From assembly GCA_050951565.1 (NCBI GenBank), contig JBMNJH010000012.1:63141-127140 (forward strand): a stretch of DNA of 64,000 nt, in the 5' to 3' direction. Below are positions 1-64,000 of this stretch, one piece after another. The first letter of the stretch is position 1. Every line of letters starts with the position of its first letter. A program made the position numbers and the translations under genes. Source of the DNA: Peptococcia bacterium (lineage in GTDB: Bacteria > Bacillota > Peptococcia > DRI-13 > DTU073). The notes beneath the pieces were generated by a model. That model worked only from the letters and a program-made list of their open reading frames with translations, had not been told where the DNA came from and did no database searches.

Positions 1-28
1 AGCTCCCAAAGAGCAAGTAGCAGAAAGT

Positions 29-823
29 ATGGAGGAAAACTACGGGGAATATGTTGCGCCCGCTTTGCTTGAACAATGGAAGCAAGACCCGCAAAAGGCC
101 CCGGGCAGGCTTACTTCCAGCCCTTGGCCGGATCAGATCGAAATATTGAACATGAACAAAGTTTCGGAGGAAGCCTATCATGTAAAAGGTGAAATTATCG
201 AGGTTACCAATGTGGAAAAAGAAAGCGGGGAAGTTGCCGCGAAAAGAGAAATTAATCTCACCGTGGTAAAAATCGATGAACGGTGGTTCATTAACAGCGT
301 TGAACTGGGAGATTACGTGGAGGGCGACGGTGCCCTCAATAACGGTACTGATAACGATAGCGCTGCCGCTAATACTAATACTAATACTAATGGTAATGCT
401 AATGCTAATACCGGAAGCAAGCTCTCCCTGGTGTATAAAAACGAGCAATATGGGTTCAGTTTTGCTCTGCCCGAGAGTTGGAAAAACTACAAGATTATCA
501 CTGAGGAATGGGAGGGGAGATGGTTAGAAGACGCTCCCGAGGGTAAAAATGTGGAGAAAGGTCCGCTGATTTCCATTCGCCATCCTCTTTGGACAGAAAA
601 AAACCCGCGGCAGGATATCCCCATGCTCATTCTTACGCATCAGCAATGGAACTCTGTGCAGCAGGAAATACTCGCGATCGGAGCGGCGCCTGTTCCGCCA
701 TCTAAATTAGGCAGTAATGACAAGTACGTTTTTGCCTTGCCCGCCCGTTATAACTACGCTTTTCCCGAAGGATTCGAAGAAGTGGAGGACATTTTAGCCA
801 GCAATCCCCTGCAAACGAACTAA
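29..823 (+). CDS. Hypothetical protein (5'-partial; reading frame is open to window start) with Asn/Thr low-complexity segment NTNTNTNGNANANT
   Basis: Long ORF in frame from position 2. No recognisable catalytic motifs. Contains an in-frame hexamer repeat at 371-412. Confidence 0.5.
   Translation: MEENYGEYVAPALLEQWKQDPQKAPGRLTSSPWPDQIEILNMNKVSEEAYHVKGEIIEVTNVEKESGEVAAKREINLTVVKIDERWFINSVELGDYVEGDGALNNGTDNDSAAANTNTNTNGNANANTGSKLSLVYKNEQYGFSFALPESWKNYKIITEEWEGRWLEDAPEGKNVEKGPLISIRHPLWTEKNPRQDIPMLILTHQQWNSVQQEILAIGAAPVPPSKLGSNDKYVFALPARYNYAFPEGFEEVEDILASNPLQTN
371..412 (+). repeat. In-frame hexanucleotide tandem repeat (AAT-NNT)x7 encoding NTNTNTNGNANANT
   Basis: aatact aatact aatact aatggt aatgct aatgct aatacc read directly from the sequence. 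Confidence 0.8.
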
Positions 824-919
824 TTGATAATTTTAGACCTGCTGAGGTAAAGTGACATAAGTAAGTCGCATAAGCATAAAAGCGCAGCGATGGTCCAAAA
901 TATATGGTAAGGATACAAA

Positions 920-947
920 GGCAGTAATATCGCAAGGTATTACTGCC
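920..947 (+). other. Perfect 10-bp stem / 8-nt loop hairpin (GGCAGTAATA-tcgcaagg-TATTACTGCC) in the intergenic region
   Basis: Inverted repeat seen in the sequence between the first ORF and the CODH-like gene. No downstream U-tract. Confidence 0.4.
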
Positions 948-1019
948 CAAACTATTTAAAAGAGGTTTTTTTGCAGGAGAATTACCGAAGAAAAATTCCA
1001 GAAGAAGGAGAATGATTGC

Positions 1020-2723
1020 TTGATGGCGGAAAATGTTTTGGAAAGAACCGAAGGGCGGGTCAGTTATCATGATTCGGTGGAAGCGATGCTGAAAAGAATC
1101 AAAGAGGATGGGCTTTCCAGCGTCTTTTCCAGGTGGCCGGTCCAGGAAAAGCTGCGGTGTAGTTTTTGCTTGCAGGGTCTGAGCTGCCAGTTATGCACCC
1201 ATGGGCCTTGCCGGATCAGCGATAAGGTGGCGGGCGCGGACAAAGGGGTGTGCGGTATTGGGCCTGATGCCATGGCTATGCGGAATTTGCTCATGCGTAA
1301 TATTATGGGCGCCGCAACCTATGCCCATCATGCTTTTGAAGCCTTTCGCACCTTGAAAGCCACCGGAGAAGGAAAAACTCCTTTTACCATCGGCGATGTG
1401 GGCAAACTGAAATGGATGTGTGAAAAGGTGGGCATCGACCCCAATCAGGAGACGAAGCAACTGGCGATTCAATTGGCGGAATTGCTGGATCGGGAATTAA
1501 AAATCAATCCGGACCAGGAAAGCATCATGCTGGAGGCCTTTGCCCCGAAGAAGCGCAAAGTTTTGTGGCGGGAGAAGGAGCTTTATCCTTCCGGGGTACA
1601 GCATGAGGTGGAAAACAGTATTGCCAGTTGCCTTACCAATGTGGACGGGGACTTTGTGTCCCTGGCCCGAAAAGCCCTGCGTTTGGGGATCGCAACCATT
1701 TATACGGCTCAAATCGGCCTGGAAATGGTGCAGGATATTCTTTTTGGGACTCCCATGCCCCACCAGGTCGATGTTGACCTGGGCATTATGGATCCTGATT
1801 ATGTCAACATCGTTTTCAATGGACATCAACCCTGGATTGGGGTGGCCACCCTGCAAAAAGTGCGGCAGCCCGCCTACCAGGAGCGGGCCCAAAAGGCAGG
1901 AGCCAAGGGGATCCATATTGTTGGTTCCATCGAAACAGGACAGGAGTTAGTTCAAAGATTCCCGGTGGACGACGTTTTTGTGGGTTTGATGGGAAACTGG
2001 CTATCGCTCGAACCACTTTTGGCCACCGGCGCGGTGGATGCCTTAGTGATGGAAGAAAACTGTTCGCCGCCGGCGATTGACCAGTATGCGGAAAAATACC
2101 AGTTTGCTTTGTTCTACCGGGAACTGGGCGTGGAATTAAACACGATTAAAGCCTTGCTCACGTCTCCCTCTTTTGATAAGACCGCCGCTTTGCGTGAACA
2201 CCATGCCAAACTCCTGGCGAAAAAGGCGCGTCTGGAACTATTGATTGCCAACGTGGAAAAATCCATTGCGGCGGCGGAGGGGAGGATTAGGATGTCGGAC
2301 CAGGAGAAGTTTGAGGGCTTTAAGAAAAAATTGCTGGAAGAAAACGAAGCCCAATACGGGCGGGAGAGTAGAGAAAAGTACGGGGAAGAAGCGGTTCGCC
2401 GGTCCAACCAAAAGTTCATGGAGATGACCGAAGAGCAATATGCCAAACTCCAGGAATTGACCGAGCGGCTCAATGATACCTTAAAGCAGGCCATGGTCAC
2501 CGGCGATCCGGCCGGAGACTTGGCCCAAAAGGCTTGTGCACTGCACAAAGAATGGTTGCTTTACTTTTGGCCGAAGTATTCAAAAGAAGCGCATTGGGGG
2601 CTGGCTCAAATGTACGTGGATGGCCCTCGTTTTACCGCCTACTATGACCAGATTGCTCCGGGTTGTGCCGTGTTTTTACGCGATGCCCTGCGGATTTATA
2701 CGGGAGCAAAGGGAGGAGAATAA
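1020..2723 (+). CDS. Truncated, probably catalytically inactive Ni-CO-dehydrogenase (CooS/hybrid-cluster family) N-terminal region fused to a C-terminal TipAS-like (thiopeptide/antibiotic-recognition) domain
   Basis: N-terminal Cys cluster CSFCLQGLSCQLCTHGPCRI...GVCGIGPD matches the CooS B/D-cluster motifs (CCRHCLQGPCRI...GICGATAE). ILFGTPMP and NIVFNGHQP match the CooS LFGTPAP / VAVHGHNP motifs. The C-cluster Cys of the 'ICCTGNE' motif is replaced (GSIETGQE) and the C-terminal half of CooS is absent. The last ~150 aa (RFTAYYDQIAPGCAVFLRDALRIY) match the TipAS/Mta C-terminal domain. Confidence 0.75.
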   Translation: MMAENVLERTEGRVSYHDSVEAMLKRIKEDGLSSVFSRWPVQEKLRCSFCLQGLSCQLCTHGPCRISDKVAGADKGVCGIGPDAMAMRNLLMRNIMGAATYAHHAFEAFRTLKATGEGKTPFTIGDVGKLKWMCEKVGIDPNQETKQLAIQLAELLDRELKINPDQESIMLEAFAPKKRKVLWREKELYPSGVQHEVENSIASCLTNVDGDFVSLARKALRLGIATIYTAQIGLEMVQDILFGTPMPHQVDVDLGIMDPDYVNIVFNGHQPWIGVATLQKVRQPAYQERAQKAGAKGIHIVGSIETGQELVQRFPVDDVFVGLMGNWLSLEPLLATGAVDALVMEENCSPPAIDQYAEKYQFALFYRELGVELNTIKALLTSPSFDKTAALREHHAKLLAKKARLELLIANVEKSIAAAEGRIRMSDQEKFEGFKKKLLEENEAQYGRESREKYGEEAVRRSNQKFMEMTEEQYAKLQELTERLNDTLKQAMVTGDPAGDLAQKACALHKEWLLYFWPKYSKEAHWGLAQMYVDGPRFTAYYDQIAPGCAVFLRDALRIYTGAKGGE

Positions 2724-2905
2724 GCCGGCTCATCCCGGATCAAGCAGTCGGAAAAGTAATGACGCTCTGCACTTTGACTGTTACCCTTTCCAACGGTCAA
2801 TTTTAGTGCATCGGGGCCCGAAATCAGTTATAATAATATTTGTTGTATTGCCAACAACTCGAGTAATTAAGTCGAGTGCTTCAGTGAAAGGTAGGGCTCC
2901 TGGTT

Positions 2906-3646
2906 ATGAATACCCGCAAAACCGCCATTATCACCGGCGCATCCCGGGGGATTGGCCGGAAAACCGCCGAGCTATTTGCCCTTAACGGATACAATGTGCT
3001 GATTAATTTCCGCCATTCGCAGCAGGCGGCGGAACAACTCCAAAAGGAATTAAGACAAGCCGGGGCCAAGGTGGAAATTTTCCGGGCCGATGTGGGAAAT
3101 TATGATGAGGCCCGGGCGATGGTGGATTTTTGTTTGGACCGTTTTGGCGCGGTGGACGTTTTGGTCAACAACGCGGCCATCAGCCAGAGCAAATTGTTTA
3201 CCGAGCTGACGCCGGCCGAATGGCAGGAAATGATGAGGGTGATTTTGAACGGGGTTTTCAACTGCACCCAGCATGCTTTAAAGCACATGCTGCGGGAGAA
3301 TCGGGGGAAGATTATCAACCTGTCTTCGATTTGGGGGATTGCCGGAGCGTCTTGTGAAGTGCATTATTCAACGGCCAAGGCGGGTATCATCGGCTTTACC
3401 AAGGCTTTAGCCAAAGAGATGGGCCCTTCCAATATTCAGGTAAATTGTGTGGCCCCCGGCGTAATCGAGACGGATATGCTCAATGAGTATACGGAGGAGG
3501 ATTTGGAGGCGCTGCGGCAGGAGACCCTGGTGAAGCGACTGGGCAGCCCCCAGGACATTGCGCAGGTGATTTTGTTTCTGGCTTCGGAAAAGGCGGACTA
3601 TATTACCGGCCAGGTAATCAGCCCCGACGGAGGCTTTTTGCTCTAA
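2906..3646 (+). CDS. Short-chain dehydrogenase/reductase (3-oxoacyl-ACP reductase FabG-like)
   Basis: TGASRGIG Rossmann motif, NNAG, and catalytic S...YSTAKAG (YxxxK) spacing typical of classical SDRs. Confidence 0.85.
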   Translation: MNTRKTAIITGASRGIGRKTAELFALNGYNVLINFRHSQQAAEQLQKELRQAGAKVEIFRADVGNYDEARAMVDFCLDRFGAVDVLVNNAAISQSKLFTELTPAEWQEMMRVILNGVFNCTQHALKHMLRENRGKIINLSSIWGIAGASCEVHYSTAKAGIIGFTKALAKEMGPSNIQVNCVAPGVIETDMLNEYTEEDLEALRQETLVKRLGSPQDIAQVILFLASEKADYITGQVISPDGGFLL

Positions 3647-3724
3647 GGTGGAAAAGGGAAAGCGAAAAGTAAAAAAGTGACCGGGAATAGGAAGTAGAGA
3701 AAAGAGAGCAGGAAAAAGAAAGAA

Positions 3725-5365
3725 GTGGGAGAGGGAATGGAAAGTAGAAACGCAAAGGAAGAAAAAATAAACAAACCGGTGCGAGTACGGTTTGCGCCTA
3801 GTCCTACCGGCTATTTGCATATTGGCGGGGCACGGACGGCTTTGTTCAACTGGCTTTTTGCCCGGCAAAACCAGGGAACCTTTGTCTTGCGGATTGAAGA
3901 TACGGATACGGAACGATTAAAAGAAGATTCGGTGGCGCAGATCCTGAACAGCCTCCGTTGGCTGGGTCTGGACTGGGACGAAGGGCCGGATGTGGGCGGA
4001 GCTTACGGGCCATATTACCAGTCGGAGCGGCAAAGCTTCTACCAGGCCGCCGCTGCCGCTTTGTTAAAAGAGGGAAAAGCCTATTACTGTTTTTGCAGCG
4101 AGGAAGAATTGGCTAAGGAGCGGGAAAAACAACGCCAGGCGGGACAAACCATTCGTTACAGCGGGAAATGTCGCCACTTATCGGATCAAGAGGTACAGGA
4201 AGGTCTGGCCCGGGGCGATAAACCGGTGGTGCGGATTAAGCTGCCGGAAAAAGGCGCCATTGTCGTGCAGGATTTAATCCGGGGCGCGGTGACTTTCCAA
4301 TTTGAACAGTTGGATGATTTTATTATCATGAAATCCAATGGCTTGCCGGCCTATAACTTTGCTTGTGTGGTGGATGACCATACCATGGCCATCAGTCATG
4401 TCATCCGGGCGGAAGAACACCTGTCCAATACACCCAAGCAGCAATTCCTTTATGAGGCTTTGGGTTATCCGGTGCCCCAATTTGCCCATCTTTCCATGAT
4501 CCTGGCGCCGGACCGCAGTAAACTGAGCAAGCGGCACGGGGCCACCAGTGTCAGCGAATTCCGGGAGATGGGCTGCCTGCCGGAAGCCATCGTCAATTAC
4601 TTAACGCTGCTGGGTTGGTCGCCCAGTGAAGAGGAAGGCGAAATCCTGACTCCGGAGCAGACCCTGCGGTCGTTCTCCCTGGAGAAGGTCTCGAAGACGG
4701 CGGCCATCTATGATACGCAGAAATTAATCTGGTTAAATGGCCAGTATCTGATGAACTACGCGCCGGAGAAGCTGTTGCCGCAAGCGTTACCCTATTTGCT
4801 GGAGACCGGTTTGGTGGCCGACCCAAAGGAAGCGGAGCAAAAACAGGCCTTGCTGGTGGCGGTGCTGGCCGCTTTTCAGGGAAGAGTAAAAACCTTAGCG
4901 GAGTTGCCGGAAGCCTGCCGGTATTTCTTTACCGATGTTGGTTCCTACGACGAAAAAGGGCAACAGAAGTATTTCTTTAAGCAAAGCGCCGGTTCCGGCG
5001 CAGGTGCGGGTTCCGGTGGTGCAGATGGTGGTTCGGGTGCAGTCACCAGTACCGGCTCAACTGCAAATGCCGGCTACGATGTGGCGGACTTATTAAGGAA
5101 AGGGCGGGATTGCCTGGCTGAGCTGACGGAATTTACCGTGGAAAGAACAGAAAAAGCCTATCGTGATTTGATTGAAAAACTCCAAATCAAATCCGGTCAG
5201 TTAATTCATCCGACCAGGCTCGCTCTGACGGGGCGGACGGCCAGTCCCGGCTTGTTTGAAGTAATGGCCTTATTAGGTAAAGAAAAGTGCCTGGAGCGTT
5301 TGGAGCAGGCGATTGAATACATTGAATACATTAGAGAGCATAAGAACGAGGAAGAGGGAGATTAG
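3725..5365 (+). CDS. gltX: Glutamyl-tRNA synthetase with a Gly/Ser/Ala-rich low-complexity insertion near the C-terminal (anticodon-binding) region
   Basis: Class I HIGH motif (PSPTGYLHIGGARTALFNW) and KMSKS-like KLSKR. The insert is SGAGAGSGGADGGSGAVTSTGSTANAG (DNA approx. 4987-5075). Confidence 0.9.
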   Translation: MGEGMESRNAKEEKINKPVRVRFAPSPTGYLHIGGARTALFNWLFARQNQGTFVLRIEDTDTERLKEDSVAQILNSLRWLGLDWDEGPDVGGAYGPYYQSERQSFYQAAAAALLKEGKAYYCFCSEEELAKEREKQRQAGQTIRYSGKCRHLSDQEVQEGLARGDKPVVRIKLPEKGAIVVQDLIRGAVTFQFEQLDDFIIMKSNGLPAYNFACVVDDHTMAISHVIRAEEHLSNTPKQQFLYEALGYPVPQFAHLSMILAPDRSKLSKRHGATSVSEFREMGCLPEAIVNYLTLLGWSPSEEEGEILTPEQTLRSFSLEKVSKTAAIYDTQKLIWLNGQYLMNYAPEKLLPQALPYLLETGLVADPKEAEQKQALLVAVLAAFQGRVKTLAELPEACRYFFTDVGSYDEKGQQKYFFKQSAGSGAGAGSGGADGGSGAVTSTGSTANAGYDVADLLRKGRDCLAELTEFTVERTEKAYRDLIEKLQIKSGQLIHPTRLALTGRTASPGLFEVMALLGKEKCLERLEQAIEYIEYIREHKNEEEGD

Positions 5366-5467
5366 GCAACCTAGCCCACGAAAAACCGACCTATGATTGA
5401 TAATAACGCGTAATTTCTTCTTGCATTTCGTTGCTTCTACCTGTATAATTAACTTTGTTTCTTTTGT

Positions 5468-5543
5468 GGCCCCATGGTCAAGAGGCCTAAGACGCCGCCC
5501 TCTCACGGCGGAAACAGGGGTTCGAATCCCCTTGGGGCCACCA
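5468..5543 (+). tRNA. tRNA-Glu (anticodon CUC) with encoded CCA
   Basis: 76-nt cloverleaf. Acceptor GGCCCCA/TGGGGCC, discriminator A, then CCA. Anticodon loop CCCTCTCAC is near-identical to E. coli tRNA-Glu (CCCTTTCAC). T-arm GGTTCGAATCC. Confidence 0.9.
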
Positions 5544-5567
5544 CCAAAATGAAATCGTGTAATATTA

Positions 5568-5606
5568 AAACCCGCTTTTTTGTTAAAGCGGGTTTTATTG
5601 TTTTGG
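5568..5606 (+). terminator. Rho-independent terminator after tRNA-Glu (11-bp stem AAACCCGCTTT/AAAGCGGGTTT, followed by a T-rich tract)
   Basis: Hairpin and T-tract read directly. Flanked by an A-tract, so it may act bidirectionally. Confidence 0.7.
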
Positions 5607-5687
5607 CTGATGACCTTTGGATGCTTTTTCGACTAAAAAGTGAAGTTATTGTCGCAGGAATAATTCGTTGCGCCAGTTTGGCAGCAG

Positions 5688-6467
5688 TTAGTTGTCGACG
5701 GGTTTGCCGGTTCGGCCGGCGATTAACCGATTTTCCCCGGTCTCGAGATTGTATTGATAAACCGCTTCATTGGTGCTATAAGACTCGTCGCTTAACACCC
5801 AGTCTTTTTTGATGTATTCGATGGTCTGCTCGTCAATCCATTTATTGGCCAGGTAATCAGTGCCATCTGTGCCACTGAATAATACTGTGCTTTTTTTCGT
5901 GTGAAGATCATAAAGCACCAGGTCGAAAATATTGGGATCAATCGTAATGGTGTTTTTGATTTCCGATTGATTCTCGTTAAGACCGGTGTAGATTAATTGA
6001 TTTCCTTCCGGGGAAAAGAAAAGGGTTTCATAGTAATCGAAGCTGTCAACAAAGGCTGCATCGGCGGTAAATAAGTGACCAAGCCTGATCACATAGGTGC
6101 CTGAATCGGCGAAGATGTATTTACTGTTGGGTGACCATACTAATTCAGCGACATGAAACAATTCGCGTTCCGACTGGATCGGAGAACTTTCCCCTACAGG
6201 CCATATATGAAGGAAAACCGGTTTGTCGAATTCTTCTTCGGTTTGGCCTTTGAGATAGGCAATATATTTTTTATCGGTTGATTGGGTAATAAAAGTAACA
6301 TCGTCTTGGGCTCTGAGCTGTTGGATAATATACTCCACGGAGAATTGCTCCGTAGCGTTGTTGGCCGTGCCGTTATTGGCGGCCTCGTTGTTTGCGCCAA
6401 AACATCCGCTTAACCCTAAGACCAGGGTCATGAAAAAACAAAGTAAAACGATTCTTTTCAAGTTCAA
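5688..6467 (-). CDS. Lipoprotein of unknown function (lipobox LGLSGC), beta-propeller-like C-terminal region
   Basis: Signal peptide plus Cys lipobox. Low-complexity ANNEAANNGTANNATE follows the Cys. Lies downstream of feoB on the same strand. Confidence 0.6.
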   Translation of the reverse strand: MNLKRIVLLCFFMTLVLGLSGCFGANNEAANNGTANNATEQFSVEYIIQQLRAQDDVTFITQSTDKKYIAYLKGQTEEEFDKPVFLHIWPVGESSPIQSERELFHVAELVWSPNSKYIFADSGTYVIRLGHLFTADAAFVDSFDYYETLFFSPEGNQLIYTGLNENQSEIKNTITIDPNIFDLVLYDLHTKKSTVLFSGTDGTDYLANKWIDEQTIEYIKKDWVLSDESYSTNEAVYQYNLETGENRLIAGRTGKPVDN

Positions 6468-6600
6468 TTCCCCCCTAATCTCCAGATTCTCAAAATCAAT
6501 CGGTAGTAGTGATTTTTAAATCTCTTACCACCCCCGCCTTAAATTCTTGTGGATTATCAGTTAAAGGAATAAGTTCTTCATTCCTTTCATTTTTCCTTTT

Positions 6601-8631
6601 CTATTGACCCAGACCAAGGAGCAGGCCTCCCTGGTAGACCAGGAAAGCCACGAACCAGGCCAGGGCAAAGGTGTAAAGAACCGCAAAAATTGTCCATTTC
6701 CAGGAGCCGGTTTCCGCCTTAATCGCGCCAATCGTTCCCGCACAAGGGATATAGATTAAAGTCATCACCATGAAACTGTACGCGCTTAAGGGTGTCCAAT
6801 GCAAGGCCAGTACGGCCGACAGGCTTTCTTGCCCCGTACCGTAAAGAACGCCGAGGGTGCTGACCACCACTTCTTTGGCGACGACCCCGAAGAGCAGCGC
6901 CGAGGCCGCTTCTCTCGTCCCAAAACCAAGGGGAGCAAAAAGCGGAGCCAGCAGGGAACCTAATTTACCCATGAAACTATCCGGACTGGCATATTCTACC
7001 CCCCAGGGGAAATAGGCGAGAGCCCAGGCAATCATCACGACACTAAAGATTACCGTCCCTACTTTTCTAAAGAAAGCGACGCTTTTTCTTTCGATTTGAA
7101 TGAAGGTATCTTTTAAGGTCGGCAGGCGGTAGGGAGGCAACTCAATTAAGAGGGGCGAAGTCTCCCCGGGGAAGAAAAACCGAGCAAAAATTTTGGCCAT
7201 GATAACTGCAAGGAGAATCCCCAACAGGTAAAGGGAAAACATTACCACTGCCTGGTATGCTTTGAAAAATGCGCCTACAAACAGGGCATATACGGGCAGC
7301 CGCGCCCCGCAGGACATCAGCGGGAGAATTAAAATGGTAATCAGGCGGTCCCGGGGATTTCTCAGGGTCCTGGCCGCCAAAATGGCCGGAACATTGCAGC
7401 CAAAGCCCATCACCAGCGGGATAATGGCTTTTCCCTCCAAGCCAAGATAGCGCATATAGCGATCCATCAAAAAGGCCCCGCGGGCCATATAGCCACTGTT
7501 TTCCAACAGGGAAATCGCCAGGAACAAACAAATAATCACCGGCAGGAAAATAATAATGCTTCCTAACCCGCCGATTATTCCTTCGACCACAAAAGAAGCC
7601 AGTAAATCGTGGGTAATCAGCCCAGACAATTGATTTCCCAGGAAAGCAAAAATATCTTCTAACAAGCTAACAAGGGGACTGCTTAAGGTGAAGGTAATTT
7701 TAAAAACCACCAGAATCGCTAGAAAAAAGAGGGGCAATCCGATGTATTTATTGAGGACGATACGGTCGATTTTATCGGAAAGGGTATAAGTGCCCGCCAG
7801 GTCGGGGCTGTCCACCACCTGTTGCAGGACTGTGTTGATGTATTGATATCTTTTCTCGATAAACATTGCCGCAAGGTTTTCACCATAGATTTTTTTAAGC
7901 CGGTTCATGCTTTGCTTCCGGAAAGCCAGCAGGTTGTGGAAAATCTTTTCACACAGTTCGGCCTTCATCTGCATCGTCTTGAGGAAATTCTCGCCTTCTT
8001 CCAACAGTTTCAGCGCCAGAAAGCGCAAGGGATAGGAAGAAGGGGTGAGGCCCATCGTGAGGATGGCTTCTTCCAGGGTCCTGATTTCCGCTTCAATTTC
8101 CGGGCCGTAATCAAGGGAAAAACCATGTTCCGGCGGGGCTTGTTCGGCGGTGGCCACGCGCACCAGGTCCCCAAGCCCCATTTTTGTTCTGGCGATGGTG
8201 GGGACAATCGGCACTTTGAGCAGATAAGACAGTTTCGTGACGTTGATCTTGATCGCGTTTTTTTCGATCTCGTCCATCATGTTTAAAGCGACGATGACCG
8301 GGACGCCCATTTCCAGCAGTTGCACCGTCAAGTAAAGGTTCCGCTGCAGGTTGGTGGCATCCAGCACGTTGATGACGGCATGGGGTTTTTCCAGCAGCAG
8401 ATAATTGCGCGCTACCAGTTCGTCTTCCGACTGGGAGCCCATGCTGTAAATGCCCGGCAAATCAATGATGGTAACGTGGGGATGATTGATCAGGGGACCT
8501 TCTTTTTTTTCAATCGTAACCCCCGGCCAATTGCCGACTTTTTGCTTGGCCCCGGTTAAATTATTAAACAAAGAGGTTTTTCCTGTATTGGGATTTCCGA
8601 TTAAGGCAATCGTTTTTTCTGTCGTGGTCAT
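6601..8631 (-). CDS. feoB: Ferrous iron transporter FeoB (N-terminal G-domain plus polytopic membrane domain)
   Basis: GNPNTGKTSLFN G1 motif, DLPG G3 motif, long hydrophobic C-terminal region, 676 aa. Confidence 0.92.
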   Translation of the reverse strand: MTTTEKTIALIGNPNTGKTSLFNNLTGAKQKVGNWPGVTIEKKEGPLINHPHVTIIDLPGIYSMGSQSEDELVARNYLLLEKPHAVINVLDATNLQRNLYLTVQLLEMGVPVIVALNMMDEIEKNAIKINVTKLSYLLKVPIVPTIARTKMGLGDLVRVATAEQAPPEHGFSLDYGPEIEAEIRTLEEAILTMGLTPSSYPLRFLALKLLEEGENFLKTMQMKAELCEKIFHNLLAFRKQSMNRLKKIYGENLAAMFIEKRYQYINTVLQQVVDSPDLAGTYTLSDKIDRIVLNKYIGLPLFFLAILVVFKITFTLSSPLVSLLEDIFAFLGNQLSGLITHDLLASFVVEGIIGGLGSIIIFLPVIICLFLAISLLENSGYMARGAFLMDRYMRYLGLEGKAIIPLVMGFGCNVPAILAARTLRNPRDRLITILILPLMSCGARLPVYALFVGAFFKAYQAVVMFSLYLLGILLAVIMAKIFARFFFPGETSPLLIELPPYRLPTLKDTFIQIERKSVAFFRKVGTVIFSVVMIAWALAYFPWGVEYASPDSFMGKLGSLLAPLFAPLGFGTREAASALLFGVVAKEVVVSTLGVLYGTGQESLSAVLALHWTPLSAYSFMVMTLIYIPCAGTIGAIKAETGSWKWTIFAVLYTFALAWFVAFLVYQGGLLLGLGQ

Positions 8632-8703
8632 TGTTTCTTCTCCTTAGGGTAATGTATCGTAGTGATGAAAGTTGTTGCGCGTTGAACGAAGAAAATACAG
8701 GGT

Positions 8704-8943
8704 TTAGCCGGCCTTTTCCACGAGAATTTTGCTGGCCATTTGACGGCCCAGGGCGATTCGGCTGCTGGAGAGGGCAATCAGCACCGGACCCCATCCGTCA
8801 TTACGCACGATGTTGATTTGGGTGCCGCGGTTAAGCCCCATTTCATTGAGTCTTCTTTTTAAGCTGCTTCCGCCGGCGATTTCTTTGATGATGACCTTTT
8901 CGCCAGGTCGCATTGTAATTAAGGATTGTTGTTTTTCGCTCAT
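8704..8943 (-). CDS. feoA: FeoA (small SH3-like ferrous iron transport protein)
   Basis: 79 aa, sits immediately upstream of feoB, typical FeoA size and context (LRRLxELGLxxGxxI). Confidence 0.85.
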   Translation of the reverse strand: MSEKQQSLITMRPGEKVIIKEIAGGSSLKRRLNEMGLNRGTQINIVRNDGWGPVLIALSSSRIALGRQMASKILVEKAG

Positions 8944-9025
8944 TTTACGTCACCTCAGTTTTGTGTGGATGTTAAAGCAGAGTAGTGATGAATCGAACAA
9001 GGATGATTTAGTGACAATAAAAAGC

Positions 9026-9463
9026 TTACAGATCGGACTTAAGTAATTCGGCAGCTTTTTTAAGGTCAAGGTCGCTGCTGATTTGGTAGTTGCCTTTTTC
9101 CAGAAAAGCAATCATACCGGCAATGGTTTGGGGACTAATGACATGTTCGATTAAGCAGGCATCTTTGTTGGCGATATCGGCATCTACTTGCAATACGGTC
9201 ACCAGGAATTCGCGGATGATTTTGTGCATCTTTTTCACTTTTAACGCGGCCAGTTCGCCTTTTTTGGTCAGCGAAACAGGGCCGTATTTTTCTTTCAGCA
9301 CCATTTTTTCATTAATCAAAGTATCAATGGCTTGGGTTGCGCTTGCTTTGGTAATATTAAGAGCGTTGGCGATATCCGTAATGCGCGTGGAATGATTGTT
9401 TTCCGATAGTTGAAGAATTACCTCCAGATAGTCCTGGGTCGAGGGTGTAAGTGCTTTACTCAT
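9026..9463 (-). CDS. DtxR/MntR-family metal-dependent transcriptional repressor
   Basis: N-terminal winged-helix region TQDYLEVILQLSENNHSTRITDIANALNITKASATQAIDTL is typical of the DtxR/IdeR family. First gene of the dtxR-feoA-feoB operon. Confidence 0.85.
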   Translation of the reverse strand: MSKALTPSTQDYLEVILQLSENNHSTRITDIANALNITKASATQAIDTLINEKMVLKEKYGPVSLTKKGELAALKVKKMHKIIREFLVTVLQVDADIANKDACLIEHVISPQTIAGMIAFLEKGNYQISSDLDLKKAAELLKSDL

Positions 9464-9492
9464 CTCGGGCTCACTTCCCTTTAGTAAAAAAT

Positions 9493-9508
9493 GTTAGGCT
9501 TACCTAAC
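9493..9508. promoter_or_regulatory. Inverted repeat GTTAGG-CTTA-CCTAAC, a candidate DtxR-family operator in the divergent promoter region
   Basis: Half-sites TTAGG/CCTAA are those of IdeR/DtxR boxes (TTAGGTTAGGCTAACCTAA) but with a shorter spacer. Located 30 bp upstream of the dtxR-like start. Confidence 0.45.
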
Positions 9509-11346: not shown

Positions 11347-12768
11347 TCATGGCAGAACGGGCGGGAGGCCGTCGATTAATTGATTGATCGTTACCGGATA
11401 AATGTTTTTTTGCGCAGCAAAGCTGATTAACTCATCGCTGAAACCGTTTTTGGAAAAAAGATAATAATATACTCTGGCGGTATTGTTGCTTGGTTTAAAC
11501 TTGGCAAGAAGAGTATTTAAATCTTTCAAGTTAAAGGGGGCATTTTTGAATTTGCATTCACCGATGAGAAAATGGTTTTTCTCCTTATCGGTGGCCATGA
11601 TGTCTAGCTCGTCCGTCTTGTCCCACCAGCGCCCAATTTTGGTAAAGCGGAAAGGTAGTCTTTCTTGCCTGTTGAGCTTTCTTAAATATTCTCGGCAAAT
11701 CAGTTCAAAGCTCCTCGAGGTAAATTGGTTTAAAGAAGGTTTTACAACCTGATGAAAAACGCCATCTATGTCCCCTGTTTCCAGTTCTGATATACAGGGG
11801 AAAACGAAAGCGTACCAAAAACGGAAGAAGTTGTCGGTAATTTGATACAGCCCTCTTTGAAAGCTCGCTTGTTTCTTAATGCTTTCGGAAACGGGAACCT
11901 CTCGCTCGATAATCCCTAAATCGATCAGGTTTTTTAAATATACCGTCAGCTTATTTTTGTCAATTTGGGTTTTTTGATAGATTTCATTAAGTTTGGTATT
12001 ACCTAAAGCGATTGCTTCAATAATCGTGTTGTAGATGGTGGTTTCCCGTAATTCTTGCCTTATTAAGAATTCTATTTCGGAATAGAGGATACTACCTTTT
12101 TGAAGGATGTTTGCTTTGATGTTTTTCTCCAGTGATTGATTATGATCAAATTGTTTTAAATAGTGGGGGATACCTCCCAGGATGGCATAGGCATATATTT
12201 TCTCCAGATGAGGGTATTTGGGGAAGAATTGAATAGCGTCATAAAAGTCCATTTTGCTCATTTTTAAGATGCCGGTTGCTCTGCCGTAAAGGGGATTTTT
12301 TTCCGCTAATACTTCTTTTTCGATAAAAGACATGGCACTGCCGCAAAGAATGATCATTACATTTTCTGCTTTGAGTTTTTCATCCCATAGTTTTTGTAAT
12401 AGAGAAGGGATAGAGCGATTATTTTTGATCATGTAGGGAAACTCATCGATAATCAGTAGTTTTTTTCCTTCTGAAGGCAATTCGGATACACAGGCAAAAG
12501 CCTGTTCCCAGTCGGCAAACTCGCGCAAGTATTTGGCTGCAGGAACATTCTTTTTAAGCATTCTCGCACTGAAGTCTTTAAGCTGTTTTTCATTCGTACT
12601 TTCGGTACAGGTATAAAAGACATGGTCTTTTCCTTCGCAAAACTTACGCAGGGTTTCAGTCTTTCCGATACGGCGACGACCGTATACCACAATGAGTTGA
12701 CCGCCTTTACTACGGTATTTATCTTCTAAGAATTGCAGTTCGTTTTTTCTGCCGATAAACATCCGCAA
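11347..12768 (-). CDS. AAA-type ATPase of the DUF234 ('archaeal-type ATPase') family
   Basis: Walker A GRRRIGKT, Walker B LLIIDEF. 473 aa with the C-terminal DUF234-like region typical of this family. Confidence 0.75.
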   Translation of the reverse strand: MRMFIGRKNELQFLEDKYRSKGGQLIVVYGRRRIGKTETLRKFCEGKDHVFYTCTESTNEKQLKDFSARMLKKNVPAAKYLREFADWEQAFACVSELPSEGKKLLIIDEFPYMIKNNRSIPSLLQKLWDEKLKAENVMIILCGSAMSFIEKEVLAEKNPLYGRATGILKMSKMDFYDAIQFFPKYPHLEKIYAYAILGGIPHYLKQFDHNQSLEKNIKANILQKGSILYSEIEFLIRQELRETTIYNTIIEAIALGNTKLNEIYQKTQIDKNKLTVYLKNLIDLGIIEREVPVSESIKKQASFQRGLYQITDNFFRFWYAFVFPCISELETGDIDGVFHQVVKPSLNQFTSRSFELICREYLRKLNRQERLPFRFTKIGRWWDKTDELDIMATDKEKNHFLIGECKFKNAPFNLKDLNTLLAKFKPSNNTARVYYYLFSKNGFSDELISFAAQKNIYPVTINQLIDGLPPVLP

Positions 12769-62495: not shown

Positions 62496-64000
62496 GTGCT
62501 GAATGATATTGATGTGACGTCAGGGCCGCTTCTTGGGTCGGCTGACTCTTTTAACGGGGAGTTGGATTTTCAGGGTTATACGCTGCATAATAGCAAGGGT
62601 ACTTACTTATTTCGCATTTGGGTAAAAACGGGTATCATTAAAAATATGGTACTTGATGTGACGATCCCGTATACTGATCCGATGCGTTACCGGGCTTTAT
62701 TGCTTATGTTTCCAGGGGACGGATGGAGAATATTATGGTGAACGTAAAAGGTTGTACCGAGTTATCTGCATAATGACTGGGGACTTTTTTGTCCATAACA
62801 GTGCGACCGGCGTGATTGAAAACTTTGTGGTCAATCTGGAAAGTCCGCTTTATGTTTGGAGAAATTTGGGTGTGTACGCATATAACAGCGGGATGGTACG
62901 AAACGGTTATGTGTATGGTAGCGATATTGAACTGCCTGATATTGAGGTGGATGGGGGCTATACTGCCTCTAATTTTGGCGGGATTGTGGGCAGAAACGAA
63001 ACAGCCGGACGGGTGGAAAATGTCTTTTCTCTGGTCAATATCCGTACCGGCACACTGGTCACGCCTAGCAAGAACAATTTTGGCATGATTGTGCGGCGTA
63101 ACAATGGGACAGTGAAGGGTGCTTTTACCACGGGAGAGGTCTATTTCGGAGGGGCAAATGACCTGCGCTATGGCCCGGCGGTAGGCCGTCAGGGCGGGAT
63201 GCTGCAGACTGATGCTTACTACATTTCGGAAAGACTCTACCTATACGAATACATATAACGCGAAAGTAAGCAAGGAAACGCTCTATGATCCATTGTGGCA
63301 CAAGGCCGTCCTGGGGGATATGTTTGACACGGAGACACTGGTCTTAATGGGTTATTACCCCCAATTAAAGCTGCCCGATTGTATGCCGGCCCAGCCTTAT
63401 CTGCCCTTGCCGGAGTTAAATGTTGCCGATGCGGTGGATCTGGCCAGCGTAATGGTCGAAGAGCAGTACGAGGATTACGCTATCGCCCGGTTTACCTTTA
63501 ATAACCCCTATGGCTATACGATTAAGAGCGTGGGGGTCGAATACCTCAATGCCACCATTATCCCGGACAGCCAGGAGGATAAAGATGGACTCACCCGTGT
63601 GCTGGTGCGCTTGGATAACCCCACTAAGTTTTATTCCAGCTACAATGTCCTTTATTTCGGATACGGTGTTTCCGCTAGCAGTCCAACGACTTTGCGCCAC
63701 TATCAAAAAGGAGAACGTCTGGTCAATGCAGAGTTTTTTAAGCCAATTCGCACAATTGAAGATTGGGCATCTATAGAGGATAGCTTAGAGCAGAACTATC
63801 GTTTGAAAGAGGATTTGGATTTTAATAATACTCCGCCGCAATTAATCCGCATTGGGGAAAATGATGCTAATCAATTTACCGGCAAACTGGATGGCGGTAT
63901 TTATGACAAAAACATGAAATGTATTGGGATGCATACTATTCGTAATCTTGATTTATCCATTGGCTTAGGAGGAGTGATCACTAATTTAAAAGGTTCGGTT
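62496..64000 (+). pseudogene. GLUG-motif surface protein split over three consecutive frames (62496-62741 frame 0, 62752-63258 frame +1, 63257 to window end frame +2): frameshifted pseudogene, phase-variable gene or sequencing error; 3'-partial
   Basis: Each downstream frame is open well before the upstream frame's stop. GLUG-like motif ASNFGGIVGRNETAGRVENVFSLVNI. The last segment runs off the window end, so the ORF track omits it. Confidence 0.45.

Follow-up and report, generated by a model that had tools for sequence, protein, structure and literature searches.

CooS-V of Carboxydothermus hydrogenoformans is a carbon monoxide dehydrogenase (CODH) scaffold that houses an Fe/S/O hybrid cluster and is divided into an N-terminal domain (residues 1-235), a middle domain (236-414) and a C-terminal domain (415-629) (Jeoung et al., PMC9311411). 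The canonical C-cluster ligands are, in CODH-II numbering, His261, Cys295, Cys333, Cys446, Cys476 and Cys526, and the CooS-V subclade has as a synapomorphy the change of Cys295 to Glu, correlated with that of Gly41 to Cys at the [2Fe-2S] bridging cluster (PMC9311411). In the phylogeny of CODHs the type falls in clade D, structural group D-1, which is marked by a type III D-cluster, a Glu in place of the first C-cluster Cys and a Tyr at the site of the acid-base His (Inoue et al., PMC6344411). Proteins of this family do not oxidize CO. Regulators of the TipA class, in turn, consist of a DNA-binding domain of four helices, a coiled coil (alpha5) through which they dimerise, and a TipAS effector domain, and the tipA gene has two start codons, which give TipAL and a predominant short form, the antibiotic-binding TipAS (PMC7762955). 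In the stretch of DNA analysed here (the window: 64,000 nucleotides of a Peptococcia bacterium, positions 63,141 to 127,140 of contig JBMNJH010000012.1 in assembly GCA_050951565.1), a single open reading frame (ORF) joins the front of a CooS-V-type gene, cooS, to the rear of a TipA-class gene, which we call mta.

Deletion between adjacent genes on the same strand is a known bacterial route, by way of in-frame chimeras, to pseudogene-like remnants and occasionally to fusions. The window allele carries such a deletion, of ~1.06 kb, which begins with codon 365 of cooS and ends with codon 53 of mta, and the resulting chimera works like neither parent. We put the probability at about 0.8 that it is a remnant made by this deletion, with at most residual TipAS function. 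The kind of event is well known; this particular chimera is undescribed. It resembles other deletion chimeras in its co-oriented neighbours, a junction at short microhomology, breakpoints that lie within domains and its occurrence as a strain-level polymorphism, whereas it departs from the usual case in being in frame, in being the commonest allele sampled and in being accompanied by a second, independent deletion in the same regulator.

Deletion junction and parental layout

The chimeric frame is uninterrupted and encodes 567 residues from a TTG, or 566 from the ATG one codon further on, which is the start used by most database entries. Pfam places the Prismane/CODH family (PF03063) on residues 55-366, covering profile positions 2-301 of 513 with an E value of 1.8e-73, and the entire TipAS profile (PF07739, positions 1-117/117) near the C terminus, with an E value of 1.2e-35. 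Both matches are far beyond chance and bear out the CODH-like N terminus and TipAS C terminus that had been proposed in a sequence-only reading of this locus. A weak, partial match to PF09278 (MerR-DNA-bind; residues 361-410, E 3.4e-4) begins where the CODH match ends, and neither PF00376 nor PF13411, which describe the N-terminal MerR helix-turn-helix, matches the chimera. The sequence-only reading had taken the tail to be a TipAS domain of ~150 residues; the TipAS domain is indeed complete, but the tail as a whole is 203 residues of an Mta-like protein (residues 54-254) and also brings half of helix alpha4 and all of alpha5.

Among the homologs of the complete chimera are the identical fusion itself (P0001) and a CODH-like protein of 637 residues (P0002), which matches the first 64% of the query at 100% identity. 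The latter is encoded on contigs L005 and L006, and its neighbours are those of the window: ATP-binding cassette (ABC) transporters and an acyltransferase upstream, and a short-chain dehydrogenase, gltX and feoAB downstream. At the nucleotide level L005 is 100% identical to window positions 1-2111 and 99.9% identical to window positions 2304-8000. The 192 nt in between are missing from L005, and L005 11090-11957 (868 nt, comprising the last third of cooS and intergenic DNA) is missing from the window. Because each allele holds DNA that is missing from the other, both derive from an ancestor in which cooS was complete and a larger part of the downstream gene was present.

The layout of such an ancestor can be reconstructed from a sister lineage, represented by contigs L007-L012 ('Peptococcia bacterium' GCA_050951585.1 and five metagenome contigs). 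Here a cooS gene of 638 codons (93% identical) is followed, after an 80-nt spacer, by a gene for a 254-residue protein with MerR helix-turn-helix, MerR-DNA-bind and TipAS domains. The spacer contains a MerR-type promoter (L007 7944-7974), in which TTGACA and TATGAT flank a 19-nt spacer with CCGTAACGTAAAGG. The 254-residue protein (P0141) is 76-78% identical to the C-terminal part of the window protein over 203-208 residues. In an alignment with 120 homologs, the window sequence begins at residue 54 of the MerR-TipAS regulators, and all full-length Mta homologs carry the MerR domains. The sister lineage (intact cooS and intact mta; L009) and the window species (intact-cooS allele; L013) are found in one metagenome, JGI sample 3300060823, and therefore co-occur in one habitat.

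At the breakpoint, the tetranucleotide TTTG is common to cooS (..GCTTTG/ATT..) and mta (..ATTTTG/TTY..), which leaves Leu364 assignable to either parent, and the two frames are joined in phase (...EKYQFAL/FYRELGVEL...). The same 566/567-residue protein is encoded on 11 more contigs (L001-L004 and L015-L021): three from NCBI metagenome-assembled genomes, two from ENA assemblies, three from JGI metagenomes and three from Logan assemblies of public runs. They derive from 10 samples or more, and several assemblers were involved (SPAdes-style NODE_, MEGAHIT k141_, JGI and Logan). All 11 cross positions 2111/2112 in a single ungapped high-scoring segment pair. They differ from one another by scattered single-nucleotide polymorphisms (SNPs) in the flanks, and as these flank haplotypes are distinct, the contigs stem from independent genomes. 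About ten further members of 566/567 residues are present in the 90% protein cluster.

These observations bear directly on the concern, raised already in the sequence-only reading, that a mis-join or a frameshift in assembly or sequencing had merged two genes. The metagenomic nature of the data and the existence of a second allele with intact cooS would be in keeping with such an artefact. In a de Bruijn graph, however, a microhomology of 4 nt is too short to cause a mis-join. Since the identical junction recurs across independent contigs and the microhomology is incapable of producing it, the fusion is a genuine genomic deletion, and the chance that it is an artefact is negligible.

We propose the following course of events. 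The ancestor of this uncultured Peptococcaceae/Peptococcia species would have carried a CooS-V-type gene (clade D, group D-1) and, ~80 nt behind it, an independently transcribed MerR gene of the Mta/TipA class. A single ~1.06-kb deletion at TTTG then took away the cooS gene from codon 365 to 637, together with the intergenic MerR-type promoter and the first 53 codons of mta, and the reading frames joined in phase by chance. The window allele is a strain-level structural polymorphism that exists alongside an intact-cooS allele with its own deletion at the 5' end of mta.

What the chimera keeps of CooS-V and of Mta

The intact cooS has its best PDB match in CooS-V (7b7q, 825 bits), the next CODH scoring 442 bits. 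The part of it that survives in the chimera displays the signature of the CooS-V subclade: the Cys at position 41 is present and gives a CxxC D-cluster (C47-x2-C50), and Glu takes the place of Cys295 within GSIETGQE (GSIESGQE in 7B7Q). An NGHxP motif and a Tyr at the acid-base His position add to the likeness. The sequence-only reading had described the CODH part as degenerate and had pointed to the replaced Cys of 'CCTGNE'. The replacement itself is correct (G-S-I-E-T-G-Q-E, residues 302-309), but a Glu at this position together with a CxxC D-cluster defines the CooS-V/clade D-1 type and is not a sign of decay. The Cys motif of the D-cluster is of the CxxC type (C47 and C50) and the B-cluster Cys 56/59/64/78 come after it. 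The LFGTP motif is there (residues 241-245), and the supposed 'HGHxP' reads N-G-H-Q-P (267-271), as in CooS-V. The chimera does not qualify as a canonical Ni,Fe-CODH: it scores 440 bits against the NCBIfam cooS equivalog TIGR01702, below the cutoff of 478 bits, covers only model positions 1-349 of 621, has Glu305 at the Cys295 position and has lost the three C-terminal Cys.

The three-domain scaffold of CooS-V is incomplete. The cooS-derived segment comprises the full N-terminal helical domain and about two thirds of the middle Rossmann domain, and the match stops at residue 364 (~CooS-V residue 355), inside the latter. The deletion takes some ~60 residues off the middle domain and all of the C-terminal domain along with its three cluster ligands, and the hybrid-cluster site cannot form in the chimera as a result. 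The earlier statement that the protein stops before the C-cluster ligands is right for these three; the equivalents of the others (H269, E305 at the Cys295 position, and C348) are kept. The missing third of the middle Rossmann domain, together with the C-terminal Rossmann domain in full and half of the six hybrid-cluster ligands, would deprive the product of CooS-V activity, and truncation within the Rossmann domain probably destabilises the large product.

We compared the second half with the TipA class as represented by Streptomyces lividans TipAL/TipAS, Bacillus subtilis Mta, Caulobacter crescentus SkgA and AlbA/AlbAS. The chimera keeps alpha5 (residues 365-424 align to the coiled coil of 120 homologs), the full TipAS domain and an internal Met. 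Its residues 365-428 run from the second half of helix alpha4 in the DNA-binding domain through the linker to the alpha5 coiled coil used for dimerisation. In contrast to these regulators, it lacks residues 1-53, and with them the helix-turn-helix, the wing and one half of helix alpha4, as well as the autoregulated MerR-type promoter with its 19-nt spacer, which is deleted in the window and present in L007. The Mta part would be expected neither to bind DNA (helix-turn-helix and wing gone) nor to regulate itself (promoter gone).

A strong Shine-Dalgarno sequence lies 5 nt before the ATG of the internal Met, Met425 of the chimera. This Met is present in 119/120 full-length Mta homologs, with a conserved E-G-R ahead of it, as expected for an internal start of the TipAS type. 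The pattern suggests that dual translation in the manner of TipAL/TipAS is general in the Mta-like family and not a peculiarity of Streptomyces. In the chimera, Met425 is the probable start of a stand-alone TipAS isoform of 143 residues, whose use we infer from these signals. The TipAS ligand-binding domain would be the best candidate for residual function, whether it is made at the end of the chimera or, as is more plausible, as the 143-residue isoform, and its transcription would have moved from a drug-inducible, autoregulated promoter to that of cooS. The idea of a ligand-sequestering protein, put forward in the sequence-only reading, can be retained only in part, in that ligands may still be bound by the TipAS moiety, whether on its own or attached to the chimera. 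Should the chimera or the short TipAS be expressed, the locus would provide a small case of promoter capture by a drug-sequestering domain. We note that the E-G-R codons ahead of the internal Met spell a GGAGG Shine-Dalgarno sequence in these Firmicute Mta-like regulators.

Alleles, spread and competing explanations

The 13 fusion sequences that were aligned are 99-100% identical, and because all copies are this similar, they go back to a single recent event restricted to one species. Six sites vary within the gene, all of them in the Mta-derived part (three synonymous, three non-synonymous); none is found in the 1092-nt CooS part. The window has Val493 (T2497) in its TipAS part, an Ala to Val (C to T) change that is derived with respect to the sister lineage. 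Val493 is common to the window and the unfused allele (L005, L014) and occurs in 0/11 other fusion contigs, which indicates recombination between the structural alleles downstream of the deletion. Several flank SNPs are also common to both alleles; fused and unfused forms thus co-circulate in one recombining population.

The unfused allele has a lesion of its own. In the L005-type allele, a separate deletion of ~385 nt extends from the mta promoter spacer to ~codon 116. Of the promoter, only the -35 box and 8 nt of spacer remain (L005 about 11943-11957). Of the gene, what is left is a TipAS-only ORF of 130 residues (L005 11915-12377, also in L006 and L014; equivalent to window 2304-2723), without an ATG, a Shine-Dalgarno sequence or a -10 box. 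Thus mta has been decapitated in two independent events within one species, and none of 16 contigs showed an intact same-species copy.

This double loss raises the possibility of adaptive rewiring, in which the deletion was kept for placing the drug-sequestering TipAS domain under the cooS promoter, for an advantageous loss of Mta, or for both, with the chimera as a by-product. Both deletions take away the mta promoter and the DNA-binding domain, 0/16 contigs have an intact same-species mta, and the fusion is the majority allele. The internal Shine-Dalgarno sequence and Met and a full TipAS domain are kept, and TipAS is the predominant antibiotic-binding isoform in tipA (PMC7762955). However, the allele counts were obtained by exact-protein look-ups in an uncontrolled sample of assemblies, and drift or hitch-hiking predicts the same picture. 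Moreover, the TipAS remnant of the other allele lacks an ATG, a Shine-Dalgarno sequence and a -10 box, which argues against selection for TipAS expression. We consider adaptive rewiring unlikely.

Protein-seeded scans of species-representative genomes and metagenomes yielded 160 related cooS loci, none of which has the fusion. An mta-like gene is present in the flanks of 1/160, and that one belongs to the sister lineage; the adjacency of cooS and mta is a lineage-specific accident rather than a conserved partnership. No same-species locus spanning the junction is among the 160; one (L123), although 100% identical, breaks off at residue 303. An exact 33-nt pattern from just upstream of the junction gave zero matches in metagenome_contigs and genome_contigs, collections from which the relevant contigs are evidently absent. 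Since neither the 160 loci nor the listings of the 120 best homologs of each half include a second fusion, the domain combination is as unusual as the sequence-only reading had supposed. Matches covering query residues 1-433/440 were considered as older fusions and rejected, as they are ordinary 637-residue CooS proteins with an over-extended, low-identity alignment.

A further alternative is that of a functional new protein in which the N-terminal Fe-S domain of CODH serves as a redox- or Fe-S-sensing or dimerising module and is connected through the coiled coil to TipAS. The ORF is open and in frame, all the D- and B-cluster Cys lie in a complete N-terminal domain, alpha5 and TipAS are complete, and the allele is widespread within the species. 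Against this, there is one near-clonal allele, absent from the 160 related loci and from the homologs listed, and the parental genes are adjacent in this lineage only. The break falls inside the middle Rossmann domain (~residue 355 of 236-414) and inside MerR alpha4, not at a domain border; such within-domain breaks are expected of random deletion and are not what selected domain shuffling usually preserves. We hold a new functional protein to be highly improbable, and the Fe-S or redox-sensing TipAS variant of the sequence-only reading gives way to a single 99-100% identical allele of one species that a deletion explains base for base. That the chimera is a young functional gene, in which the N-terminal Fe-S domain and the coiled coil provide a dimeric redox-responsive scaffold for TipAS, or that the two deletions were selected to decouple TipAS from drug induction, strikes us as improbable.

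We favour a remnant made by deletion, and several points have to be set against that choice. Loss of function is inferred from knowledge of the two families, and the N-terminal helical domain, complete with its two Fe-S sites, might fold alone. No intact-mta allele of the same species was found, and the ancestral state is a reconstruction from the sister lineage. The six SNPs are too few to indicate either constraint or decay, and the ratio of non-synonymous to synonymous substitution rates (dN/dS) is powerless on the fusion alleles. The ORF is intact in 12/12 copies, and the fusion is the commonest allele in the sample (at least 12 contigs, compared with 4 with an intact cooS); intact ORF and majority status would be compatible as well with an allele that is tolerated or even of advantage.

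The locus offers a clean natural example of how a gene fusion originates, with documented evidence for the ancestral layout, for the microhomology at the junction and for an alternative allele that co-circulates. It also calls for caution, since what looks in one genome like a 'new domain architecture' may turn out to be an in-frame deletion of recent date between neighbours. The database names of the chimera, 'TipAS antibiotic-recognition domain-containing protein' and 'hydroxylamine reductase (hybrid-cluster protein)', are inconsistent with each other and misleading.

Coordinates and neighbourhood of the locus

Table 1. Features of the chimeric gene, in window positions.
Feature	Position	Strand	Evidence
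Chimeric ORF, CooS-V(1-364)::Mta(54-254); stop codon included	1020..2723	+	ORF list; Pfam; NCBIfam; same protein on 11 other independent contigs
cooS ribosome-binding site AAGGAG (1005-1010) and starts TTG 1020 / ATG 1023	1005..1025	+	Sequence reading; same in the unfused allele
cooS-derived segment	1020..2111	+	100% identity of window 1-2111 to L005 8979-11089, which there reads on into the intact 637-residue cooS
Deletion junction, TTTG microhomology	2108..2111	+	Breakpoint comparison of window, L005 and L007
Mta-derived segment missing from the unfused allele (residues 365-428)	2112..2303	+	No L005 match; aligns to P0141 residues 54-117
Internal Shine-Dalgarno GGAGGGGAGGA (2276-2286) and ATG 2292-2294 (Met425)	2276..2294	+	Sequence reading
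TipAS effector (ligand-recognition) domain, complete (residues 446-560)	2355..2699	+	PF07739; identity to sister-lineage Mta

The ribosome-binding site and start codons upstream of the chimera are those of cooS, and this native translation signal would now drive the fused frame. A promoter-like site at 824-853 is weak and tentative, and a scan for promoters and terminators gave nothing above shuffle expectation. In the Rfam scan of the window the sole hit was a tRNA, and no regulatory RNA was found close to the gene. The 64-kb window has no further homolog of CODH or Mta.

The hypothetical gene upstream (ORF 29-823) contains, at window ~345-375, an in-frame hexanucleotide repeat, CTAATA/CTAATG, that varies by -6, +6 and +12 nt among same-species contigs. 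The repeat is situated within an Asn-rich NTNTNTNGNANANT linker, and the products range from 350 to 356 residues. Downstream, gltX (glutamyl-tRNA synthetase, 3725-5365) is followed ~100 nt on, on the same strand, by tRNA-Glu(CTC) at 5468-5543. A feoB-feoA pair and an adjoining gene for a DtxR-type iron-dependent repressor occupy window ~6600-9500 on the minus strand (L002 6227-9089). Past the feo and DtxR genes, the plus strand encodes two proteins with a Cu_amine_oxidN1 domain (copper amine oxidase N-terminal-like).

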